Origin: an uncultured Clostridia bacterium
GTDB lineage: Bacteria > Bacillota > Clostridia > Christensenellales > UBA1242
DNA: 64,000 nucleotides
Direction of reading: 5' to 3'
Assembly: GCA_944383355.1 (NCBI GenBank)
Contig: CALWPF010000001.1
Span: 28,357-92,356 of the forward strand
The translations under genes were made by a program, and so were the position numbers. Positions 4,406-47,429 of this stretch are shown piece after piece. The notes under the pieces were generated by a model. That model made no database searches and was not told where the DNA came from. It saw only the letters and a list, made by a program, of their open reading frames with translations. Numbering within the stretch: position 1 is the stretch's first letter; every line of letters starts with the position of its first letter.

Positions 4406-6244
4406 TTAACTTTCGTGAAAATATCGATATATATCCTCAGCATTCTTTGATGTAATATTGGGTACTTTCTTTAATTCTTCTATGCATGCGTCACGTATTG
4501 CCTGTATAGATTTAAAATATCTTATTAAACTTTTACGTTTTACCTCGCCTATACCATCAATCTCATCTAATATGCTGCCCACCTTATTTCGCAAACTCCT
4601 ATGGAATGTAATAGCAAAACGATGCGACTCGTCACGAATCCTCTGGAGCAATTTGAGAGCATTGTTTGTGCGAGATAGCAATATAGGCACCTTACTGTCG
4701 ATGGTATATATCTCCTCTTCTTTTTTTGCTAAACCAACCATAGGTATATCAAAACCACATTTTTGCATAGCCTCTCTAGCGTTGGATAATTGCCCCAATC
4801 CACCATCTATTACAATAAGATCTGGGATAGCCGAAAAACTCGGGTCAGGGTTATCCACTTTTTTTGCTTCGTTAAGGCGTCTAGTAATTACCTCTTGCAT
4901 ACTAGCAAAATCGTTTGCACCTTGGACAGTCTTTATTTTGAATTTGCGATAATGATTAGTACGAGCCTCACCTTCGATAAACACAACCATAGACGCAACA
5001 GACATTACCCCGTTAATATTTGAGATATCATAACATTCCATTCTACTCGGACGCTTATCTAGATGCAATATTTCTCCCAATTGACTCACCGCCCCCACAG
5101 TAAAATCTGCCATACGCTTATCTTGCTCAACAAATTTTTCAATATAAACTTCGGCATTTTTACGTGCCATGTCTAGCAACTTCTTTTTGTCACCTTTTTG
5201 GGGAGCAATAATACTTACACTACCCACATTCCCCAAGACATTGCCCTCTTTACGCCTACTAGTCAACCACTGAGCCAAGCCAGAGTTTGCATCAACATCA
5301 AAGTTCACTGCCACCTCACTAGGGGGCAATGCTATGCTAGAATAATATTGAGTTATAAACTCACTTACTGCATCACGCTCATCTAGTGTGGCATCAATCA
5401 GATGAAAACAATCTATTCCAACACTCCTACCACCACGTACTACCAATACAGCAATAGCCGATACACTACCATTACTAGCCCAAGCAAAACAATCCAAATT
5501 GGCAAAATTTGGCAAAAAGGCAACAGTATGAGAGCCCAACCTATCTAGCGACTTGATAGTGTCACGCAACACAAGCGCACTCTCAAATTGCTCATGTTCT
5601 GCACATTTGAGCATTTTATCAGTCAATATAGATTTAACCTCTTTGTCATCACCATTAAGAAAAGAAATAACTTTTTTTACTAACTCGTGATACTGTGCTA
5701 CGCTAATCTTATCCACACAAGGCGCTGAGCACAGCCCTATATCATAATTTAAACATGGACGACTGCGTTTTTTTAGCACTGGACCTTTACACATTCTCAA
5801 TGGATATGCAAGATTTATGGCTTTTAGGATATCTTGGGGGCGGACTCCAGCAAAATATGGACCAAAATATTTTGCTCCATCTTTTTTTAGTTTCCTTGTG
5901 ATTGTAGGTCTAGGATAATCCTCATGCATATCAATGCGTATATATGGGTATGATTTGCCATCTTTTAACAAGATATTGTAGTACGGCTGATAACGCTTGA
6001 TTAAATTATTTTCAAGAGCAAACGCCTCATACTCATTGGCAACCACAACATAAGTAAAATCAGCGATATTCCCTACCATGGCACGCACTTTTACAGTGTG
6101 ATTTTTGCTAGACTGAAAATACTGCGATACCCTATTTTTAAGATTTTTCGCCTTTCCTACATAAATAACTTCGCCATTTATATTTTTCATTATGTATACG
6201 CCACTACTAGTGGGTAATTCTTGTATTTTCTGTTTTAAATCCAT
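4406..6244 (-). CDS. uvrC: Excinuclease ABC subunit C
   Basis: GIY-YIG motif (GVYIMKN...VIYVGKAKNLKNRVSQY), a UvrC homology region and a C-terminal HhH. I prefer the ATG at 6244 (MDLKQKIQELP) over the track start at 6298. Confidence 0.92.
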   Translation of the reverse strand: MDLKQKIQELPTSSGVYIMKNINGEVIYVGKAKNLKNRVSQYFQSSKNHTVKVRAMVGNIADFTYVVVANEYEAFALENNLIKRYQPYYNILLKDGKSYPYIRIDMHEDYPRPTITRKLKKDGAKYFGPYFAGVRPQDILKAINLAYPLRMCKGPVLKKRSRPCLNYDIGLCSAPCVDKISVAQYHELVKKVISFLNGDDKEVKSILTDKMLKCAEHEQFESALVLRDTIKSLDRLGSHTVAFLPNFANLDCFAWASNGSVSAIAVLVVRGGRSVGIDCFHLIDATLDERDAVSEFITQYYSSIALPPSEVAVNFDVDANSGLAQWLTSRRKEGNVLGNVGSVSIIAPQKGDKKKLLDMARKNAEVYIEKFVEQDKRMADFTVGAVSQLGEILHLDKRPSRMECYDISNINGVMSVASMVVFIEGEARTNHYRKFKIKTVQGANDFASMQEVITRRLNEAKKVDNPDPSFSAIPDLIVIDGGLGQLSNAREAMQKCGFDIPMVGLAKKEEEIYTIDSKVPILLSRTNNALKLLQRIRDESHRFAITFHRSLRNKVGSILDEIDGIGEVKRKSLIRYFKSIQAIRDACIEELKKVPNITSKNAEDIYRYFHES

Positions 6245-26080: not shown

Positions 26081-26121
26081 CTTAGTTTGTAAGTCTTCGT
26101 GAGAGAAAACTCACAATGGAA

Positions 26122-26237
26122 TCTGGCAACGACCTCTTTTCCCAAGCAGTCTCCCGCTAAGTATATTCGGCGCTGGAGGGCTTAACTGCTGTGTTCGGAA
26201 TGAGAACAGGTGGGACCCCTCCGCCATAGTCACCAGA
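26122..26237 (-). rRNA. rrf: 5S ribosomal RNA
   Basis: The reverse complement reads TCTGGTGACTATGGCGGAGGGGTCCCACCTGTTCTCATTCCGAACACAGCAGTTAAGCCCTCCAGCGCCGAA...GGGAAAAGAGGTCGTTGCCAGAT, the canonical 5S pattern. Ends are accurate to about 3 nt. Confidence 0.9.
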
Positions 26238-26389
26238 AATGGCTCAGCATGTCATCGACAAACTGTAATACTATTATATATGTAATTAAGTTATTTGTCA
26301 ACAAATATCAAAACTTTAACAATCAAATTTGCGTTTAAATCAACGGGGAGCAGTAAACTATTGCATAATCGTTTACTCTATTCCCATAT

Positions 26390-29325
<2,936 letters not shown>

Positions 29326-29857: not shown

Positions 29858-32008
29858 TTACGAATAAACAATCATATATACATTACCACTATTCATTATA
29901 CTATAATTTCTTGAGGTGTTGTTTCGTACGTAGCCGTATACAGTGTTTTTATCATTCAATGTACTTGACATCTCAAATTCCAAATAATCAAGTCTCTCAC
30001 CCTCTGCTTGTAACAACATGGATACTAGATCTCCATAATTCTCTGCATACAAATCCAACATAACATTTTGCCCCAACTGTGTATTAGCGTAATAATTAAA
30101 CTCTACATCTGCAACATTTGTAGCAGGCTCAGTCTCTAAGTGATTGGTCGCTAGATCAGCATCTGTTACCAAAAAGTATTCGTGTGCCATAGTTTCTATA
30201 TATTTTTTTGCAATTACATCATAGGTAGACATATCTGCCCATGTAGTATCCACAATATACCATGCACTCTCGTTGTCACCTGCTACCAATTTCACTTTGT
30301 TCCAAGCATGTGCTCCACCATACATCTCTGCATTAATGTTTACACCTTCGCCTGCCAAACCAGACACTTTGTAGCAGTCTATATTCTCTAGACTACACAA
30401 AAGTACAAAAGTTTTTGCTAAACCATCACATACCGCTTGACCATTATCTAATAACACACCTTCTATATAAAAACCTCTATAACGAGAAAGTGTCGCCTGA
30501 GCACTACCCGAGTTAGAGCCTGATTCAAGTTTTTCGGATAGGGCATACAAATTGTGATCATAAACGGTATTATAAGTTATCCACTCATAAATCGCACATA
30601 CTTTTTGGTAATCTGTCATATCATTACCTATAATGTCACGCAATACTGCCTTTGCCTCATCATATACGACTTTTGCTGGACAAGTATCAGAGGCGAATAT
30701 AGGTTTGCAACCATTTTGTAATGCATAATACAACTGGTCACTAGTAAAGACTAACGCAGTTTTGGTCCTAGTATCTATAGCAAAATCATCAAAGTCGTCG
30801 CTACGTTTATTATCCGAGGTAACATATGTTGTAGGTGGTACAGCTGTATTTTGAACAGTTGTATACTCTCCTGTAGCGCTCAAATTAGGAGTGGATACAT
30901 GCAAATAGCTCACCGTTAAATTTGCTAATTCTCCAGAGAAAGATATCCTAATATCAATTGCTTTTATCTCATTGTACTCTCTCAAATATTCTACAATTGC
31001 ATCAGAACGTGCATTATTGTTAGTCAAATAGTCTACATAAAACTGCATATTTTCTATACGATACAACAATGTGTAATAAACTAAACTCTTCAACTCTTCT
31101 GCACTATCTGCTACCAAATCAAATTCATTACCTAAAAAGTCAAACTTTGTACTTGCATACTGAGATTTCGTATTTTGCTCAAATGTTGCTATTCCATTTG
31201 AATAAGCAGAATCCCTGTCACCATCTGAAGACGTCGCTTGAACAAAAAATACTGTGGTATCTGCAAGCATTAAATTACTAACATTAGCACTAGTGCTGGT
31301 AGTTTCAATAGTTTCACCATCTAAAGTAGTTACTCTATAACCAACAGCCGAATCTACTCCAGTCCATTGCAATGTATTCCCTGCCAACTTAACATTTTCT
31401 GGAGTATTCAATGGAAGAGGACAGTCAAAAACAACCTCTTCTGAATATGCACTCGGTCCATAAATAGACACATCATACGCCATTGCACGGACTTTAGCAG
31501 TATACTCGCCACCTATTGAGATAAATTTTCGGATTTCAATCTCTGCATCAGTTGTCTCAAAATACTGAATGTTACCTTGTCCATCTTCCAAAGAAACTAG
31601 ATACATATCTGCACCTGCTACTGCATTCCATGACATAGTATAACTATTATCTTTATGTGGAGCAATCAAGGATGCTGGCGTAGTCAATTTTGTTTCACTG
31701 ACATAAAACACCTTTTCATCGGTGTAATCAGAGTTGCTAACAAAAACATTCCCAGAAAACGCTCTTACTTTGAGAGTTTGCTTGCCTGTAGTAATGTAAG
31801 GAGCATAATTAAATGAGGTCTCTGTCGTGTCGTAACTTTCCCCATTAAAAACAACCTCATAGGAATTTGCATTATTTTGAGCACTCCAAGATACAGTAAA
31901 ATTATTGTAAGTCAGGGTCGGAGTTTCCAAGCGAAACAAACAACCCGAGAAACAAAACAAAACTGCTACTACACATAATACTGATAAATATCTAAACTTT
32001 ACCCGCAT
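29858..32008 (-). CDS. Lipoprotein with FN3/Ig-like repeats and a C-terminal transglutaminase-like cysteine-protease core
   Basis: Lipobox-like FSGC follows a hydrophobic N-terminus. Repeated ~90-aa beta modules (W..V.GA..Y.V) are present. The Cys-His-Asp core reads GQAVCDGLAKTF ... GGAHAWNKV ... VDTTW. The ATG at 32008 is preferred. Confidence 0.78.
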   Translation of the reverse strand: MRVKFRYLSVLCVVAVLFCFSGCLFRLETPTLTYNNFTVSWSAQNNANSYEVVFNGESYDTTETSFNYAPYITTGKQTLKVRAFSGNVFVSNSDYTDEKVFYVSETKLTTPASLIAPHKDNSYTMSWNAVAGADMYLVSLEDGQGNIQYFETTDAEIEIRKFISIGGEYTAKVRAMAYDVSIYGPSAYSEEVVFDCPLPLNTPENVKLAGNTLQWTGVDSAVGYRVTTLDGETIETTSTSANVSNLMLADTTVFFVQATSSDGDRDSAYSNGIATFEQNTKSQYASTKFDFLGNEFDLVADSAEELKSLVYYTLLYRIENMQFYVDYLTNNNARSDAIVEYLREYNEIKAIDIRISFSGELANLTVSYLHVSTPNLSATGEYTTVQNTAVPPTTYVTSDNKRSDDFDDFAIDTRTKTALVFTSDQLYYALQNGCKPIFASDTCPAKVVYDEAKAVLRDIIGNDMTDYQKVCAIYEWITYNTVYDHNLYALSEKLESGSNSGSAQATLSRYRGFYIEGVLLDNGQAVCDGLAKTFVLLCSLENIDCYKVSGLAGEGVNINAEMYGGAHAWNKVKLVAGDNESAWYIVDTTWADMSTYDVIAKKYIETMAHEYFLVTDADLATNHLETEPATNVADVEFNYYANTQLGQNVMLDLYAENYGDLVSMLLQAEGERLDYLEFEMSSTLNDKNTVYGYVRNNTSRNYSIMNSGNVYMIVYS

Positions 32009-32136
32009 ACTGCTCTTTTCTCCTGTCAAAATAGTCAATTAATTTTATTGTATTCAAAATATAAAAATTGTTGCTAAATTTACTAAAAATATTTATTTTA
32101 AACTAACTAAAACAATTTCTGAATTTTTACACAAAC

Positions 32137-37580: not shown

Positions 37581-37952
37581 TTACTTACCCTTTTTTGCAC
37601 CATACTTACTACGTGCTTGATTACGCTTTGCTGTACCTGCTGTATCCAAGACACCTCTAACTATGTGATAACGCACACCTACTAGGTCTTTTACACGACC
37701 ACCACGTACCAATACAACGCTGTGCTCTTGTAGGTTGTGACCTTCACCTGGAATGTACATTGTACTCTCACTACCATTACTCAACCTAACCTTTGCAATC
37801 TTACGCAATGCAGAGTTAGGCTTCTTTGGTGTAGTAGTAGTAACAGACAAACATACACCACGCTTTTGCGGACAAGACTCCATCAAAGGAGACTTTGACT
37901 TTTGCTTTTGCGAGTGTCTACCCTTGCGAACCAACTGGTTAATTGTAGGCAT
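37581..37952 (-). CDS. rpsL: 30S ribosomal protein S12
   Basis: [12 protein letters not shown]... begins at the ATG at 37952, with AGGAGGGG as the SD. The track ORF has 13 extra upstream codons. Confidence 0.97.
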
Positions 37953-38154
37953 ATTCCCCTCCTTGTTAGTATTTTGAATGAAAAATATCAACCCATATTA
38001 TTTCATTTTGAAATAGCTTTTGTCATCATTTATATATTGTGAAAATTTGGAATGTCATATATAAAATCATGCATCAAAATCTAATTTCCTTATCCAACCC
38101 CTTGAGTACACCCTAGTCAAGTGATCGAACGCTCTAACTTTAAAACTAAGTTAG

Positions 38155-38192
38155 TTAGAAAAAACCGCTACAAATATTTTTTGTAACGGTTG
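38155..38192 (-). terminator. Rho-independent terminator inside the rpsL-upstream gap
   Basis: Minus strand reads AACCGTTACAAA-loop-TTTGTAGCGGTT (12 bp, one mismatch) followed by TTTTTCT. It would terminate minus-strand transcription arriving from the 38200-38700 region. Confidence 0.55.
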
Positions 38193-38444
38193 CTATTTTA
38201 TCAAATTAAAATGGTTATGTCAACAGCATTTTAAAATAATTTTTACTGAAATAAAATATTAATTAACTTTTGTACCAAGACTCACTACAGTCAACACATG
38301 CATTATGAATTATCAGCATTCAATGTACCTGTTACAATACCATAAGCATTGATACAAATACTTTTTTGAATTTTTATGCAATTATACATTTAGAACATAA
38401 ATATTAGTTTTTAGAACATTCACTTATTAACAAAAGTTATGCAC

Positions 38445-38569
38445 TTATCCACAATGAATATTTATAAAATTTGGTGTATTTTTATCTAAAAATTGAATTT
38501 TTAAACACTTTTTTGCATAAATTTACGAATTTTCGACAGTTATCCACAGAAATAATGCACTTATCCACA
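38445..38569 (+). promoter_or_regulatory. Cluster of three perfect DnaA boxes (TTATCCACA)
   Basis: Exact 9-mers at 38445..38453, 38540..38548 and 38561..38569, all in the same orientation. Two are embedded in a 17-nt direct repeat, ATGCACTTATCCACAAT (38439..38455 and 38555..38571). Confidence 0.7.
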
Positions 38570-38697
38570 ATCCTTGAGCACATTTTTTGTAATTTTGTTA
38601 GCAAACTTCGCTTTAGTTGCTGATTATTCTCATAAAATAAACCCCTGATATAATTCACAAAAGATTATTCAAAAAATGCAAAGTGAAAACCAAACTA

Positions 38698-39696
38698 CTA
38701 TAAACAGTATGCAGATAGCAACAAGAATGTTACATACGTGAGTGAAATTAAAACACCAAAAGTAATGGTAAGCAAGGCTGAACGTTTTGTTTTACGGCGT
38801 TTGAGAGCATAAAATATAAAACTAAATATACAAATAGCTAGCATACATATACTCAGGTATACTGATTGCAAGTCAGTCAAGAATACTGTACCAGAATAAT
38901 AGCAAACATCAGCAATAGCCAAAACTAAGTAATTAAAAACACACGTCCCCATTATATTACAAAATGCAGTATTAAAGTTACCCAAACGAACAAACGCAAA
39001 TGTGCTAATTATCTCAGGCAAACTTGTTGCCACTCCCAAAAATAATGCACCTGCCAATCCTTTGCCTAATCCATATTCTGCAGCAATATACTCTGATGCA
39101 AATGTAATAGCGATGGATACTCCCACCAAGACTAAGGAACATATGATAAATCTAATCACTATTTGTCTAACTGCTAGAGTACTATCTACTGCGGGCTCCA
39201 AGGCAGAATTTGCATTATCTGCTATATCAGCGTTGTTGGACAAGAATAAAGACAGTACATATAGAGTAATACATAACAGTGTCAAAAAATTGACATTAAT
39301 AAATGGAATTACAATACTCACATCAAAGAGGACAAAAATCGCTATACATGCAGTAATAAGTGTGCATACCCACAAAAACACGCCATTACCAGATGATAAT
39401 CTAGCATTTTTTATTCGATTAAAATAAATTATCATTACAACACCAATGATTGTAACATCAAATAAATTTGAACCAATGATATTCCCTTGAGTCAAATCTG
39501 GCTCATTCATAAATGCACCAGTAATACTGGTAACCAATTCTGGTAAACTGGTAATACCAGCCAGCAGCACGCCACCCAGCAGTGCCCCAGATAACTTGGT
39601 ACGATGTTGTAACAAATCAACATACTTGGCAAGTTTGATAGATACATATCCCATCACAACTAGGCACAAGATATAGATTATCCAAACCCACCACAT
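38698..39696 (-). CDS. Sodium/calcium exchanger family (CaCA, YrbG-like) membrane protein
   Basis: 332 aa and polytopic. Two alpha-repeat motifs are present (GITSLPELVTS...GNIIGSNLFDV and GVATSLPEIIST). Confidence 0.78.
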   Translation of the reverse strand: MWWVWIIYILCLVVMGYVSIKLAKYVDLLQHRTKLSGALLGGVLLAGITSLPELVTSITGAFMNEPDLTQGNIIGSNLFDVTIIGVVMIIYFNRIKNARLSSGNGVFLWVCTLITACIAIFVLFDVSIVIPFINVNFLTLLCITLYVLSLFLSNNADIADNANSALEPAVDSTLAVRQIVIRFIICSLVLVGVSIAITFASEYIAAEYGLGKGLAGALFLGVATSLPEIISTFAFVRLGNFNTAFCNIMGTCVFNYLVLAIADVCYYSGTVFLTDLQSVYLSICMLAICIFSFIFYALKRRKTKRSALLTITFGVLISLTYVTFLLLSAYCL

Positions 39697-43331: not shown

Positions 43332-46300
43332 TTATCTAGGTTTGCTAATAAAGTGGTCTTGCCATTCATCCTTTTCTTCATCATTTACCAATGGCAAATC
43401 ATCCTTGTCTGGATTAGCATCATCTACACCCAAACTAATATTACCATCAACAAACAAGTTTTCAACAACACCTGATATATTGGCACCAAATAAAGTTATG
43501 TTATCACCTAGCAATGCTGTACCACCATTCACAGTAGCATTGGTCGATGCATTATAGGTTATTTTGTAGCCATTCCCTTTGATAATTCCAGAAAAATCAT
43601 GAGTAGCATCGCCTATAACCTTCCAAGTTTTATCCTTGATATAGCTCAAATCCAAATCTCCAGTCAAAACAAATGTTACGCCATCAAAATCATAACCGTC
43701 GCTAATTCTATCTGCCAACCAAAACAATTTGGATATATGATTAATCTCAAAGGTCTTAAACTTAAAATCATAAACCGCTACTATAGCAGTATCAGCCAGC
43801 AACTCAATTTGATAAGATGCATTTTTACTAACTGTCTGTCCGTTAATTTGCCACTCACGGAATACAAAGCGTGAATCCGCCCTCTCTGCTGTTACTGTTA
43901 CATTATCTCCGTACTTGTACACCCCGCCACCAGTAACGCCATTGATACCAGCATAGTTAGTTTGGACAGTTAATATAACATTACTCAACTCCCACTTGGC
44001 ATACAATGTGTGATCACTTGTTGTTGTAACTAGTGTATCAGCTGTGACAGGCTTGCTATAATTACTATCTAGGTACCACCCCAAAAAGTCATAATTATCT
44101 CTAGTCGGTGTAGGCAAATTGCTGTATTTACCACCATACATCACAAATAATGTACTACTATCAGAGACATAATCAATTTTTGAAAACACTACATTTGTAA
44201 TATAAGTGTCTGCAGTTGTAGGATTTACTCTATCGTTAAAAAATCTCAATCTACAACTACTAGCATCTGCTACAGCAGGAGTCATTACACTATTGAGCAA
44301 TTGAGCATCAGTTGTTGCTGTAGGTCGAATCTCTGGTAAGCCATCTGGGAAAAGGTCAATATTAAACAATATCTCACCATTGGCCACATATACCAAGGAT
44401 ATTAGGTAATCTGCTCCTTGCTCTAGGCTCAAGTTAGTTACATTAATTGTAGGAACACTTGCGCCTTTCTCCAATTTGTACACAGTTGAAGATGTAAATA
44501 TATCAGTGAGTGACATACCATTTGTCACGGTACCGCCACCAAGATTGAGAGTCACCCTCTGTGTCGCAGGTAGCCACATAGCATATATATCCAAGTCACT
44601 AGCCACATTATAACTGGTAGCACTAGCCCCATTGCTATCATAAAATTGCGTACCACCACCGATCACCTCGGCATAATAGCCACTAAAAATATATCCAGTA
44701 CGAGTTGGAACAGTTATACTTGGCATAGTTTCATCGTATGTCGCCATTACACTACTAGTAGCCCCTGTACCATCTTCAAAGTGTAAAGTTACCGCATATT
44801 GATTAGCTGTCCACTTTGCATAAAGCGTAGTATCGGCAGTCAAATTACAAGTAATCGCACTAGAACCATCAATATTATAATATTGTGTACCACTACCATT
44901 TTGACCACTAAAATATCCACCAAAAGTATATCCTGTGCGAGTTGGCACTGTTATGCTAGGCATTGCCTGATTAGGTGTAGCCAACACCGATGTAGTACCT
45001 CCCGTACCACCAGCTTGATCCAGAGTCACTGTGCATTGATTGGCGCGCCATTGCGCTGTTACAGTAAAATTATTATTGCTACCTGTATGCATTACATTCT
45101 TATTTATAGTAACAGATGAGTCACTTGATGTCCAACCCAAAAATGTATAATTTTCTCTAGTAGGTATAGGCAATTGATAATACGAATCACCATCGACAGA
45201 CTGACTAAAACTATTACTCGTTGTACTACTATAAATATAAACATCAGATATTTTTAGATTCATTCCAGCGTCATCATCAAAACGGAATTCATAATTGCCA
45301 GTAGTCGATGGTACAAATGAATACGAACCTGATACTGGTATTTGGAAAGATTGTGGCTCAGTATATATGCCACCAGTGGTGGTGTAATAAATCCTAATTC
45401 CATTACCATATGCCCCTACTACTCCATCTTCGTTAGCTATAGTAGCGTGAAAATAATATGTAGTATTAGCGGTCAAATCTGCACGTAATTGCGTAAAAAC
45501 ATAAGGGTCGAACAAATCACTAATAACCAAGTGCCAAGTGGCCGTCTCAGCATCAAAAGTATAACTCAAATTTTGATTATTGCCACCAGAGGCTGAGCTA
45601 TCTACTTGTAATTTGCTAGAGTCAAAAAGGTTCTCGCTAGCCATAGTACCGCCAGCAGGGTCAAAAGTTGCTGTCGCACCTAAATAAACAAACTTACTGG
45701 TAGTGAATCTACTAGGATTAGCAACAGCTACATCATAAGCATTTTTTCTATAAAAATAGTAAGTAGTACTACTATTACCACCGGTAAATGCACTGCTACC
45801 CAAGTTGGATATACTTGCCAAACCATTCCTAAGATAAAAGCTAGTAATGCCACTACAACCATAAAAAGCACTACTATTAATAGTAGTAACCCCAGCTGGA
45901 ATAGTGGCACTACCAGTAAAGCCTCGACAATTATAAAACGCACTACTACCTATACTGGTCAAATTTGCAGGTAATGACAGTGTACCCTTTAAACTAGTAC
46001 AACCGCGAAATGCACTGCTACCTATACTTGTAACCGTAGATGGAATAGTCAATGTGCCAGATAAACCACTACAATTGTAAAATGTAGAACCGTTTATAGT
46101 AGTAATTTTAGATGGTATGTTAATACTACCGGTAATTTTTGAGCAATTATAAAAAGCGTTACTACCTAGGCTTGTTAGCCCCGAAGGCAATGACAATGTC
46201 CCAGTCATACTAGTACAACCGTAAAATGCACTTGAACCAATACTAGTAACAGATGACTGCAAAGAAAATCCACTGGTAATTTTTGAGCAATTATAAAAGG

Positions 46301-47282
46301 CATTACTGTCAATAGTCCTCGTAGTACTAAGGATAGAAAAACTTCCACTCTTACCAGCCGGACAAACCATCAAAGTAGTCCCAGCATAATTATACAGTAT
46401 CCCGCCAGAAGACTTGTAACTCCTATTACTTGAATTAACACTGATACCTGTCAGACTAGTACAATTATAAAAGGCATTACTACCTATACTAGTAACTGTA
46501 GACGGTATAGTCCCAAGACTACTGAGTTTAGTACACCCACTAAATGCACTACTGCTGATGGTCTTTAGTCCAGATGTTGGCAAAGATACCGTAGTCAGAG
46601 CAGTACTGCCACTAAATGCGCTTGAGCCAATACTAGTTATCTTAGAGTGTATGGTGACACTAGTTATCTTTGTACATCCACTAAATGCACTACTATTGAT
46701 AGTTGTAGCACTTGAATATAGTGTAACGCTACCACTTTTACCTGGTGGGCATTTTATGACTTGAGTATATGCTTTGTTGTATAATATGCCATTGTAGGCT
46801 GCATAAGTTGTGTTACTAGAATTTACACTAATAGTAGATAAATTTGTACACCCACTAAATGCACTTGTACTCAAACTTGTCACACCAGATGGGATAGTAA
46901 TACTTGTAAGAGATGTACAATTTCGAAAAGCGCTACTACTGATTGTAGTAACAGTTGTTGGAATAGAGATGCTTCTTACTTTTGAGCAACCACTAAATGC
47001 ACTACTTCGTATTTGATTAACAGTATAATATTTACCACTTATATATACCGAACTAGGTATACTTATAGAGCCAGAGTAACTAGTATCACAATCATAAACT
47101 CCACAAGTTGTCCCGCTAGATGTATAATAGTATACTAAAGTACCGGCATCGTATGTTACTGCATCTGCAGGTTTGTCACTCTCTTTAAAAAACAGCCCCA
47201 ATGCTACACCACATAGTATCATAATGAGGGCAATTATTGATAATATTACCAGTGCTCTTTTATTAAAAATCTTTATCTGCAT
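43332..47282 (-). CDS. Giant cell-surface protein: TM anchor, BspA-type leucine-rich repeats and Listeria-Bacteroides (Flg_new) repeats
   Basis: About 20 repeats of the type SAFxGCTxLTSxTIPSxVTSIGSSAF, and several modules of the type R.GYTF.GW....G...Y.......LYAKW. The ATG at 47282 (AAGGGGA SD) is preferred over the TTG at 47300. Confidence 0.8.
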   Translation of the reverse strand: MQIKIFNKRALVILSIIALIMILCGVALGLFFKESDKPADAVTYDAGTLVYYYTSSGTTCGVYDCDTSYSGSISIPSSVYISGKYYTVNQIRSSAFSGCSKVRSISIPTTVTTISSSAFRNCTSLTSITIPSGVTSLSTSAFSGCTNLSTISVNSSNTTYAAYNGILYNKAYTQVIKCPPGKSGSVTLYSSATTINSSAFSGCTKITSVTIHSKITSIGSSAFSGSTALTTVSLPTSGLKTISSSAFSGCTKLSSLGTIPSTVTSIGSNAFYNCTSLTGISVNSSNRSYKSSGGILYNYAGTTLMVCPAGKSGSFSILSTTRTIDSNAFYNCSKITSGFSLQSSVTSIGSSAFYGCTSMTGTLSLPSGLTSLGSNAFYNCSKITGSINIPSKITTINGSTFYNCSGLSGTLTIPSTVTSIGSSAFRGCTSLKGTLSLPANLTSIGSSAFYNCRGFTGSATIPAGVTTINSSAFYGCSGITSFYLRNGLASISNLGSSAFTGGNSSTTYYFYRKNAYDVAVANPSRFTTSKFVYLGATATFDPAGGTMASENLFDSSKLQVDSSASGGNNQNLSYTFDAETATWHLVISDLFDPYVFTQLRADLTANTTYYFHATIANEDGVVGAYGNGIRIYYTTTGGIYTEPQSFQIPVSGSYSFVPSTTGNYEFRFDDDAGMNLKISDVYIYSSTTSNSFSQSVDGDSYYQLPIPTRENYTFLGWTSSDSSVTINKNVMHTGSNNNFTVTAQWRANQCTVTLDQAGGTGGTTSVLATPNQAMPSITVPTRTGYTFGGYFSGQNGSGTQYYNIDGSSAITCNLTADTTLYAKWTANQYAVTLHFEDGTGATSSVMATYDETMPSITVPTRTGYIFSGYYAEVIGGGTQFYDSNGASATSYNVASDLDIYAMWLPATQRVTLNLGGGTVTNGMSLTDIFTSSTVYKLEKGASVPTINVTNLSLEQGADYLISLVYVANGEILFNIDLFPDGLPEIRPTATTDAQLLNSVMTPAVADASSCRLRFFNDRVNPTTADTYITNVVFSKIDYVSDSSTLFVMYGGKYSNLPTPTRDNYDFLGWYLDSNYSKPVTADTLVTTTSDHTLYAKWELSNVILTVQTNYAGINGVTGGGVYKYGDNVTVTAERADSRFVFREWQINGQTVSKNASYQIELLADTAIVAVYDFKFKTFEINHISKLFWLADRISDGYDFDGVTFVLTGDLDLSYIKDKTWKVIGDATHDFSGIIKGNGYKITYNASTNATVNGGTALLGDNITLFGANISGVVENLFVDGNISLGVDDANPDKDDLPLVNDEEKDEWQDHFISKPR

Positions 47283-47429
47283 TTTATTCCCCTTAGTCAA
47301 AAAATAAAATATGTAAATCTTTTATAATAAAATTTTTCTGTTTGTATTAGTATGTAATTACAACTACATAAATATGTGGATAGTCCCACGATAGAGTTGG
47401 AATATATTTGGTGCCAACTTATCGTATTA

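Follow-up and report, generated by a model that had tools for sequence, protein, structure and literature searches.

Why does a gap in front of a ribosomal protein operon carry three perfect DnaA boxes? The gap lies in a stretch of 64,000 nucleotides (here called the window) from contig CALWPF010000001.1 of an uncultured Clostridia bacterium, and it separates rpsL, the first gene of the str operon, from a gene for a membrane protein of the Na/Ca-exchanger family. A sequence-only reading of this DNA had placed three exact copies of the 9-mer TTATCCACA in the gap, in one orientation, at 38445, 38540, and 38561, with the last two starting 21 bp apart. It had preferred to see in them a DnaA-box cluster of the kind that Bacillus subtilis carries outside its replication origin. 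We located the three boxes exactly there. Furthermore, in one subclade each of the nine sampled lineages retains a fixed layout of boxes amid diverging flanks, which favors that preference. Our conclusion is that the conserved element is probably a chromosomal DnaA-box cluster (DBC) outside the replication origin. By analogy with the B. subtilis clusters, it most likely serves as a "parking" site for DnaA.

Box matches, conservation, and layout

Scanning the whole 64-kb window returned the three plus-strand boxes of the gap, here named A1, A2, and B1 (Table 1), and one further exact TTATCCACA. This fourth and last copy (5709-5717) stands isolated within a uvrC-like open reading frame (ORF), in line with a chance expectation of about one per 64 kb. 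Dinucleotide shuffles of the window gave 1.04 exact copies per window, and second-order Markov simulations (n = 2000) gave a mean of 0.90. A pair within 125 bp arose in 2 of the 2000 Markov simulations and a triple in 0 of 2000. A Poisson estimate puts triples at about 1e-6 per window. The earlier statement that such a triple is very unlikely by chance was therefore correct. Boxes with one mismatch were at background across the window (26 observed versus 25.6 expected). With two additional boxes that carry two mismatches each (B1' and B2), the three exact copies make up a cluster of five boxes within 146 bp, all in the same orientation.

Loci from relatives were collected by exact-protein look-ups, a scan of genome contigs, and a scan of metagenomes. 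For the genome-contig scan, a single exchanger protein used as the query returned no relative, and an alignment was needed instead. Some of the related metagenome-assembled genomes are deposited as Christensenella sp. Contigs of the same species (L001-L010) are 98% identical and therefore uninformative about selection. The gene order VanW, Na/Ca exchanger, rpsL is confined to loci L011-L036. In a neighbor-joining tree built from the two upstream proteins, the loci fall into two subclades, which also differ in the type of str leader, and the cluster-bearing lineages are monophyletic. In subclade I, the cluster is present just 3' of the orthologous exchanger gene in nine of nine sampled lineages, in the same orientation and with the same layout. 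These lineages are the window, L017/L097, L011, L013, L025, L030, L033/L104/L108, L034/L107, and L109, and the exchanger proteins of the relatives are 40 to 62% identical to that of the window. Sister subclade II has the cluster in 0 of 14 loci, despite an identical VanW, Na/Ca exchanger, rpsL order.

Mean pairwise identity among the nine lineages was 0.86 to 0.98 in the box slots, compared with 0.30 to 0.57 in neighboring 9-nt control windows. Perfect 9-mers were retained in lineages with unalignable flanks. Elsewhere in the relatives' loci, perfect boxes were single and rare, at about 1 per 35 kb. These comparisons show purifying selection on the putative DnaA sites of the cluster that match the consensus.

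The boxes are arranged in two modules. In the window, module A is a pair of perfect boxes 21 bp apart, and module B is B1 plus weak boxes at +8 and +21. The A1-A2 spacing is 20 to 22 bp in every lineage that has both, and L025 and L030 retain A2 only. Across lineages, the weak boxes of module B lie at +8, sharing one base with B1, and at +19 to +21. Spacing within modules is 19 to 22 bp overall. Boxes with no more than one mismatch have one orientation inside the modules, and opposite-strand matches with one mismatch occur only outside them.

The modules are separated by an AT-rich spacer of 66 to 87 bp across lineages. A2-to-B1 distances in the nine lineages were 75, 83, 83, 85, 85, 86, 95, 95, and 96 bp, always -1 to +2 bp from a multiple of 10.5. 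Therefore, the length changes in whole helical turns. With a 21-bp spacing within modules and 7, 8, or 9 turns between them, every box lies on one face of the helix. A-tracts of at least four bases in the spacers of seven lineages had a periodicity power at T = 10 of 16.4, against 5.7 +/- 2.1 in shuffles (0 of 1000 as high). These lineages are related, so the counts are not independent, but the signal is nonetheless specific in period and place, and an equal-length stretch downstream of module B gave no A-tract periodicity signal. Such A-tract phasing suggests that the spacer is probably intrinsically curved.

The sequence-only reading had also described iteron-like direct repeats. A 17-nt repeat, ATGCACTTATCCACAAT, is indeed present at 38439-38455 and 38555-38571, where it belongs to a 35-nt repeat of 83% identity, and 0 of 400 simulations gave one. 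However, it is not an iteron but DnaA boxes with their flanks. Its GTGCAT flank is the weak box B1' overlapping the perfect box B1, and B1' is the source of the repeat. The TTTAGAACAT repeat (38389 and 38410) is present as described and is partly conserved among relatives. The TTGAATTTTTA repeat (38366 and 38493) exists too, but once the 17-mer is set aside, the remaining 10- and 11-mer repeats, TTGAATTTTTA included, are at chance level in simulations. An iteron-type plasmid or phage replicon was rejected because the repeats are boxes with flanks and the neighbors are conserved chromosomal genes in all relatives.

Table 1. Features of the gap between rpsL and the exchanger gene, with the genes that border it (window positions; L numbers denote loci of relatives)
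Feature	Position	Strand	Remarks
rpsL (ribosomal protein S12), first str-operon gene	37581..37952	-	Pfam PF00164; 123 aa as called in relatives
Leader hairpin plus U-run	38157..38191	-	very 5' end of the str leader
str-operon promoter TTGACA-17-TAAAAT, extended -10 TG	38223..38195	-	score 11/12 with TG; context, not part of the cluster
Conserved motif ATGTTCTAAATGTATAAT	38381..38398	-	25-27 nt 3' of B2 (gene orientation); half copy at 38410-38419
Weak DnaA box B2, TTATTAACA, 2 mismatches	38424..38432	+	21 bp from B1; slot 19-21 bp from B1 holds a box (at most 2 mismatches) in 6/9 lineages
Weak DnaA box B1', TTATGCACT, 2 mismatches	38437..38445	+	offset 8 bp, one base common with B1; identity 0.86, mean 7.1/9 consensus matches
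DnaA box B1, exact TTATCCACA	38445..38453	+	slot identity 0.90; mean 8.4/9 consensus matches, 9 lineages
Spacer between modules A and B	38454..38539		86 bp, 81% A+T, A-tracts phased at about 10-10.5 bp
Conserved AAATTTTAT block	38464..38472	-	11-19 nt 5' of B1 (gene orientation); identity 0.81 versus 0.30-0.57 in control windows
DnaA box A2, exact TTATCCACA	38540..38548	+	21 bp from A1; slot mean pairwise identity 0.98, 9 lineages
DnaA box A1, exact TTATCCACA (TGTGGATAA on gene strand)	38561..38569	+	perfect box in slot in 7/9 lineages, missing in L025 and L030
Na/Ca-exchanger-family membrane protein gene	38698..39696	-	Pfam PF01699; in relatives, too, its 3' end adjoins the cluster

Gene neighborhood of the cluster

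Along the minus strand, the order is tuf, fusA, rpsG, rpsL, the gap, the Na/Ca-exchanger gene, and a VanW-domain gene. The rpsL ATG is at 37952, with a good Shine-Dalgarno sequence, so the ORF-free gap is 37953-38697 (745 bp). The earlier reading had described a 700-bp gap at 37992..38697. It was right that no accepted ORF lies there, but its limits need this correction. The small ORFs of the gap, 58 aa at most, were rejected as lacking a Shine-Dalgarno sequence, and a 50-aa ORF spanning the boxes was rejected because spacer changes between 75, 85, and 95 bp would shift its frame. Rfam gave no match in the gap at gathering thresholds, and sub-threshold chance matches appeared at E values up to 10. 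For a sigma-70 promoter, the cluster and the sequence directly following it offered weak, nonconserved matches only, which were also set aside. The absence of rpoB-rpoC upstream of rpsL, which had been taken for a synteny break, turned out to be an old trait of the whole clade, whether the cluster is present or not.

Nearly all other genes of the window are on the minus strand, including dnaX, recR, and genes for a sigH-like sigma factor, mini-RNase III, and an rRNA methylase. The window also holds tRNA synthetase genes, tilS, spoIIE, uvrC, and 23S and 5S rRNA genes, and the 10 kb past its right end contain gerAC, rpsR-ssb-rpsF, and unannotated genes. Among these, dnaX, recR, the sigH-like gene, tilS, spoIIE, the rRNA genes, and rpsF-ssb-rpsR match the origin-proximal set of Firmicutes. 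However, dnaA, dnaN, rnpA, and rpmH were found neither in the 64 kb nor in the 10 kb that adjoin its right end, and a search of the window for the parS consensus gave no hit. GC skew stays below zero along the entire window, with values of -0.12 to -0.25 on both sides of the cluster. Cumulative skew drops steadily to about 60 kb, where plus-strand genes start, and does not turn at the cluster. For about 20 kb on either side of the cluster, nearly all genes are on the minus strand. Negative skew, gene orientation, and gene content therefore put the site on a leading-strand stretch with origin-proximal gene content. The cluster is not oriC. A replication origin detached from dnaA had been ranked as the least likely option by the sequence-only reading, and the negative skew, the lack of dnaA and dnaN, and the minus-strand genes on both sides uphold that ranking.

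The str promoter is the same in 20 of 20 relatives having rpsL, with or without the cluster. Directly 3' of it, beginning at the predicted transcription start, is a minus-strand hairpin followed by a U-run (38191..38163). This leader hairpin and U-run are kept in all relatives, and GTTACAAATGATTTTGTAGCG is identical in 11 subclade II lineages. An earlier call of a minus-strand terminator at 38155..38192 needs correction. The hairpin and U-run exist, but they open the str leader as its first hairpin, directly after the promoter. The hairpin follows a conserved strong promoter and does not mark where the suggested unannotated transcript would end. No terminator-like site was found between the exchanger stop codon and the leader hairpin, which is the only one downstream of the exchanger gene. 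Therefore, the cluster lies in a zone of possible read-through transcription.

The str leader itself deserves mention. In the window it is 235 nt long (38190..37953, minus strand), with a folding z score of -3.05 versus shuffles. Across L011-L036, L108, and L109, it is 190 to 280 nt long, conserved, and structured, with internal conserved blocks. Of the 42 predicted consensus pairs, 17 have compensatory changes among 11 subclade II lineages. At its 3' end is a hairpin (about 38006..37978 in the window) that has GGGUUG in the loop. This hairpin directly precedes the rpsL Shine-Dalgarno sequence and occurs in 19 of 19 lineages, with seven or more different stem sequences; it was judged by single-sequence folds, the stems being too variable to align. 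The leader matched no Rfam family. It looks like an undescribed ribosomal-protein leader, which we put forward as a candidate, and this structured leader next to the cluster is maybe the more novel object of the region.

Two other observations in the window concern neither the cluster nor the str operon. The 23S and 5S rRNA genes (26121-29314, minus strand) occur without any 16S gene in the 64 kb, and a transglutaminase-like ORF (29858-32038) adjoins the 5' end of the 23S gene. In this organism, the rRNA genes are perhaps not linked to one another. The window has no tRNA genes. Also, 43332-47300 (minus strand) encodes a 1322-aa protein with BspA-type leucine-rich repeats (LRRs) and Listeria-Bacteroides repeat domains. 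Its length varies among same-species contigs, from 1083 to 1316 aa in L001-L006 (some copies are cut at contig ends), and it is probably a variable surface protein.

Possible roles of the cluster

How might a DnaA parking site of this design work? DnaA would occupy the five boxes, and the phased A-tracts would bend the spacer between them. This bend would bring DnaA at module A near DnaA at module B and so favor a compact, cooperative, high-affinity complex. In effect, a built-in bend would do the job that integration host factor (IHF) does at datA of Escherichia coli. If it acts as the B. subtilis DBCs do, the complex would then keep DnaA from oriC and damp or time initiation. A local effect on neighboring transcription is possible but would be secondary. 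A leading-strand site that is apparently origin proximal would be duplicated early, which fits the role of a DnaA sink. DnaA is known to bind box arrays outside oriC in vitro (PMC4447404), and the residues by which DnaA recognizes this box consensus are retained in clostridial DnaA (PMC7561715).

Several points weigh against this interpretation. With three perfect and two weak boxes, the cluster falls short in size of the strongest regions of B. subtilis, described as box arrays (PMC4447404). In B. subtilis, a DBC on a multicopy plasmid did not complement the deletion, so simple titration is perhaps not the mechanism even in that species (PMC3245932). The sister subclade is without the cluster at this locus, so the cluster is not indispensable. 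Proximity to the origin is read from gene content, oriC being outside the DNA examined, and curvature is predicted from A-tract phasing. Similarly, DnaA occupancy and an effect on initiation in this uncultured organism are expectations drawn from box sequences and from analogy, and the retention of exact 9-mers across nine lineages supports occupancy only indirectly. The AAATTTTAT block beside B1 and the ATGTTCTAAATGTATAAT motif after B2 are unexplained by a pure DnaA model. Finally, a very strong promoter lies about 70 to 220 bp downstream of the cluster in most lineages, and a transcriptional role may exist.

This last point leads to the strongest competitor, in which DnaA is mainly a transcription factor here. 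Acting from modules A and B on the str promoter, or on a weak promoter at ATGTTCTAAATGTATAAT, it would couple the output of ribosomal proteins and elongation factors, or of a short noncoding transcript, to DnaA status. The str promoter downstream of the cluster is conserved and near consensus. The ATGTTCTAAATGTATAAT motif, which includes the TTTAGAACAT repeat, contains TATAAT and is kept at its constant distance after B2 in six lineages (the window, L097, L025, L030, L034, and L109), which would put B2 and B1 near -55 and -75. Promoters are known to be activated by curved A-tract DNA upstream of them, which counts for this explanation too. There is also precedent, because some B. subtilis DBCs regulate their neighbors, with sda activated and ywlC, yydA, and dnaA repressed (PMC3245932, PMC4447404).

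Even so, we consider a mainly transcriptional role unlikely. The last box lies anywhere from about 70 to about 200 bp from the str -35 element, with no fixed phase. In two lineages, the cluster and the str promoter have other genes between them, a 700-aa LRR/DUF285 gene in one (L011:6418-8520) and a reverse-transcriptase-like ORF with a YMDD motif in the other (L034:7509-8696), and both have kept the cluster. Variable distance and inserted genes indicate that the cluster is tied to the exchanger gene's 3' end. The intervening genes also weaken the earlier suggestion that DnaA controls the str operon. Furthermore, the sister subclade has the same promoter plus leader without boxes. As for ATGTTCTAAATGTATAAT, it is not present in L011, L013, or the L033 group, and its TATAAT is degenerate in half of the lineages. 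Direct reading of the relatives' sequences gave no convincing conserved -35 element to go with it, and no conserved ORF or structured RNA was found downstream. The motif is possibly a weak promoter or the site of a second protein.

A bolder idea builds on the preferred explanation, a DBC outside the origin, and casts the cluster as a candidate Firmicute counterpart of E. coli datA. That locus is IHF dependent and promotes hydrolysis of DnaA-bound ATP. Here, the phased A-tract bend would stand in for IHF, and the two modules in register would form a DnaA trap. Its occupancy would be reset by transcription in the exchanger-str read-through zone, or DnaA status would be passed to the expression of S12, S7, EF-G, and EF-Tu, linking initiation to translation capacity. 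We offer this as a long shot.

It is highly improbable that a different protein, not DnaA, binds the sites or that the cluster is a neutral, functionless leftover. The assignment of the sites to DnaA is sequence based, and conservation does extend past the 9-mers into flanks (GTGCATAAC and AAATTTTAT). A perfect Spo0A-type heptamer, TGTCGAA (minus strand; TTCGACA on the plus strand), also adjoins box A2 in this spore-former, at 38532-38538. However, the heptamer is not conserved in the spacers of relatives, so it is probably due to chance, and we rejected it as a Spo0A box. LexA and CodY sites did not fit either. The conserved positions match the universal DnaA 9-mer exactly, even where the flanks are unalignable. 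Neutral DNA would not hold an identity of at least 0.9 and a helical phase over such divergence. No mobile-element gene flanks the cluster in the window, and those nearby are limited to later insertions, namely the reverse-transcriptase-like ORF of L034.

Least credible of all is a DnaA-dependent unwinding site, that is, a secondary, cryptic, or former origin, or half of a bipartite origin detached from dnaA, in which the spacer melts. Tandem boxes in one orientation do lie beside an 80% A+T stretch, and TAT AAA TAT, 4 nt from B1 on the correct side and followed by the AT-rich spacer, formally satisfies the permissive search rule for basal unwinding systems, which asks for at least three NAN triplets within 16 bp of a box (PMC8287927). 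Yet three such triplets are expected by chance in DNA with 37% A, the cluster has no run of the preferred DnaA-trio 3'-GAT-5' and no GC-rich spacer, skew is strongly negative across the site with no cumulative turning point, an origin here would have essential genes such as dnaX, recR, and the tRNA synthetase genes meet the fork head-on, dnaA, dnaN, and rpmH are not nearby whereas clostridial origins flank dnaA in an rnpA-rpmH-dnaA-dnaN context (PMC7561715), and the element is missing from the same locus in the sister subclade.

Comparison with known systems

The element is a non-origin cluster of DnaA boxes in a lineage where none had been described, and its layout is unusually regular. A literature search on DnaA boxes and rpsL in Clostridia turned up nothing relevant. 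Only in a few model species has it been studied how non-origin clusters control DnaA availability, and no rule for activity has been found. For B. subtilis, the authors of the DBC study found no structural feature that marks the active clusters (PMC3245932), and the regular layout here therefore has some value. The locus also offers a natural experiment, in which an element with strict phasing and an A-tract spacer has long been kept while a sister lineage lacks it despite sharing the gene order. Should DnaA bind as predicted, the cluster would suggest a design rule for a minimal DnaA trap, with boxes on one face and modules 7 to 9 turns apart across a bend, and uncultured gut Clostridia would join the organisms with such control. 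Without DnaA binding, this is an ordinary box cluster.

B. subtilis has six DBCs outside oriC that are bound by DnaA in vivo, and deletion of all six causes early initiation, an effect that depends on copy number near oriC (PMC3245932). In other Bacillus genomes, DBCs lie beside different genes, yet near oriC (PMC3245932). The cluster described here is likewise a Firmicute intergenic cluster of consensus boxes away from dnaA-dnaN, apparently origin proximal, and its neighboring genes also vary between related genomes. It differs in that DnaA binding and an effect on initiation are predicted from sequence and analogy, in its smaller array of five boxes, and in its neighbors, an Na/Ca-exchanger gene and the str operon. 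Also unlike the B. subtilis DBCs as described, it has boxes in one orientation, two modules in fixed helical phase, and a phased A-tract spacer.

Boxes upstream of a promoter recall the DnaA-regulated sda, dnaA, ywlC, and yydA promoters of B. subtilis (PMC4447404). However, the distance to the str promoter is variable, genes are inserted between, and the promoter is identical in relatives without boxes. With Firmicute and clostridial origins, the cluster shares the same 9-mers, tandem boxes in one orientation, and an adjoining AT-rich stretch (PMC8287927, PMC7561715). In contrast to them, it is without the dnaA-dnaN context, the skew switch, the 3'-GAT-5' run, and the GC-rich spacer, and its boxes are in one orientation only, whereas clostridial origins have boxes in both. 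A chromosomal DnaA-box cluster of Streptomyces, also outside the origin, reportedly lowers the frequency of initiation and has been proposed to control DnaA availability. It belongs to a different phylum and, presumably, to a different box consensus context.

The E. coli datA locus carries five high-affinity DnaA boxes (PMC3245932), and it cannot act without an IHF-dependent DNA bend between boxes (PMC10950094). Unlike at datA, the bend here would be intrinsic, and datA belongs to another phylum and has no sequence relationship to the cluster. However, datA lies near oriC and restrains re-initiation, and like it, the cluster is a short noncoding locus with a handful of boxes and a predicted bend between them.

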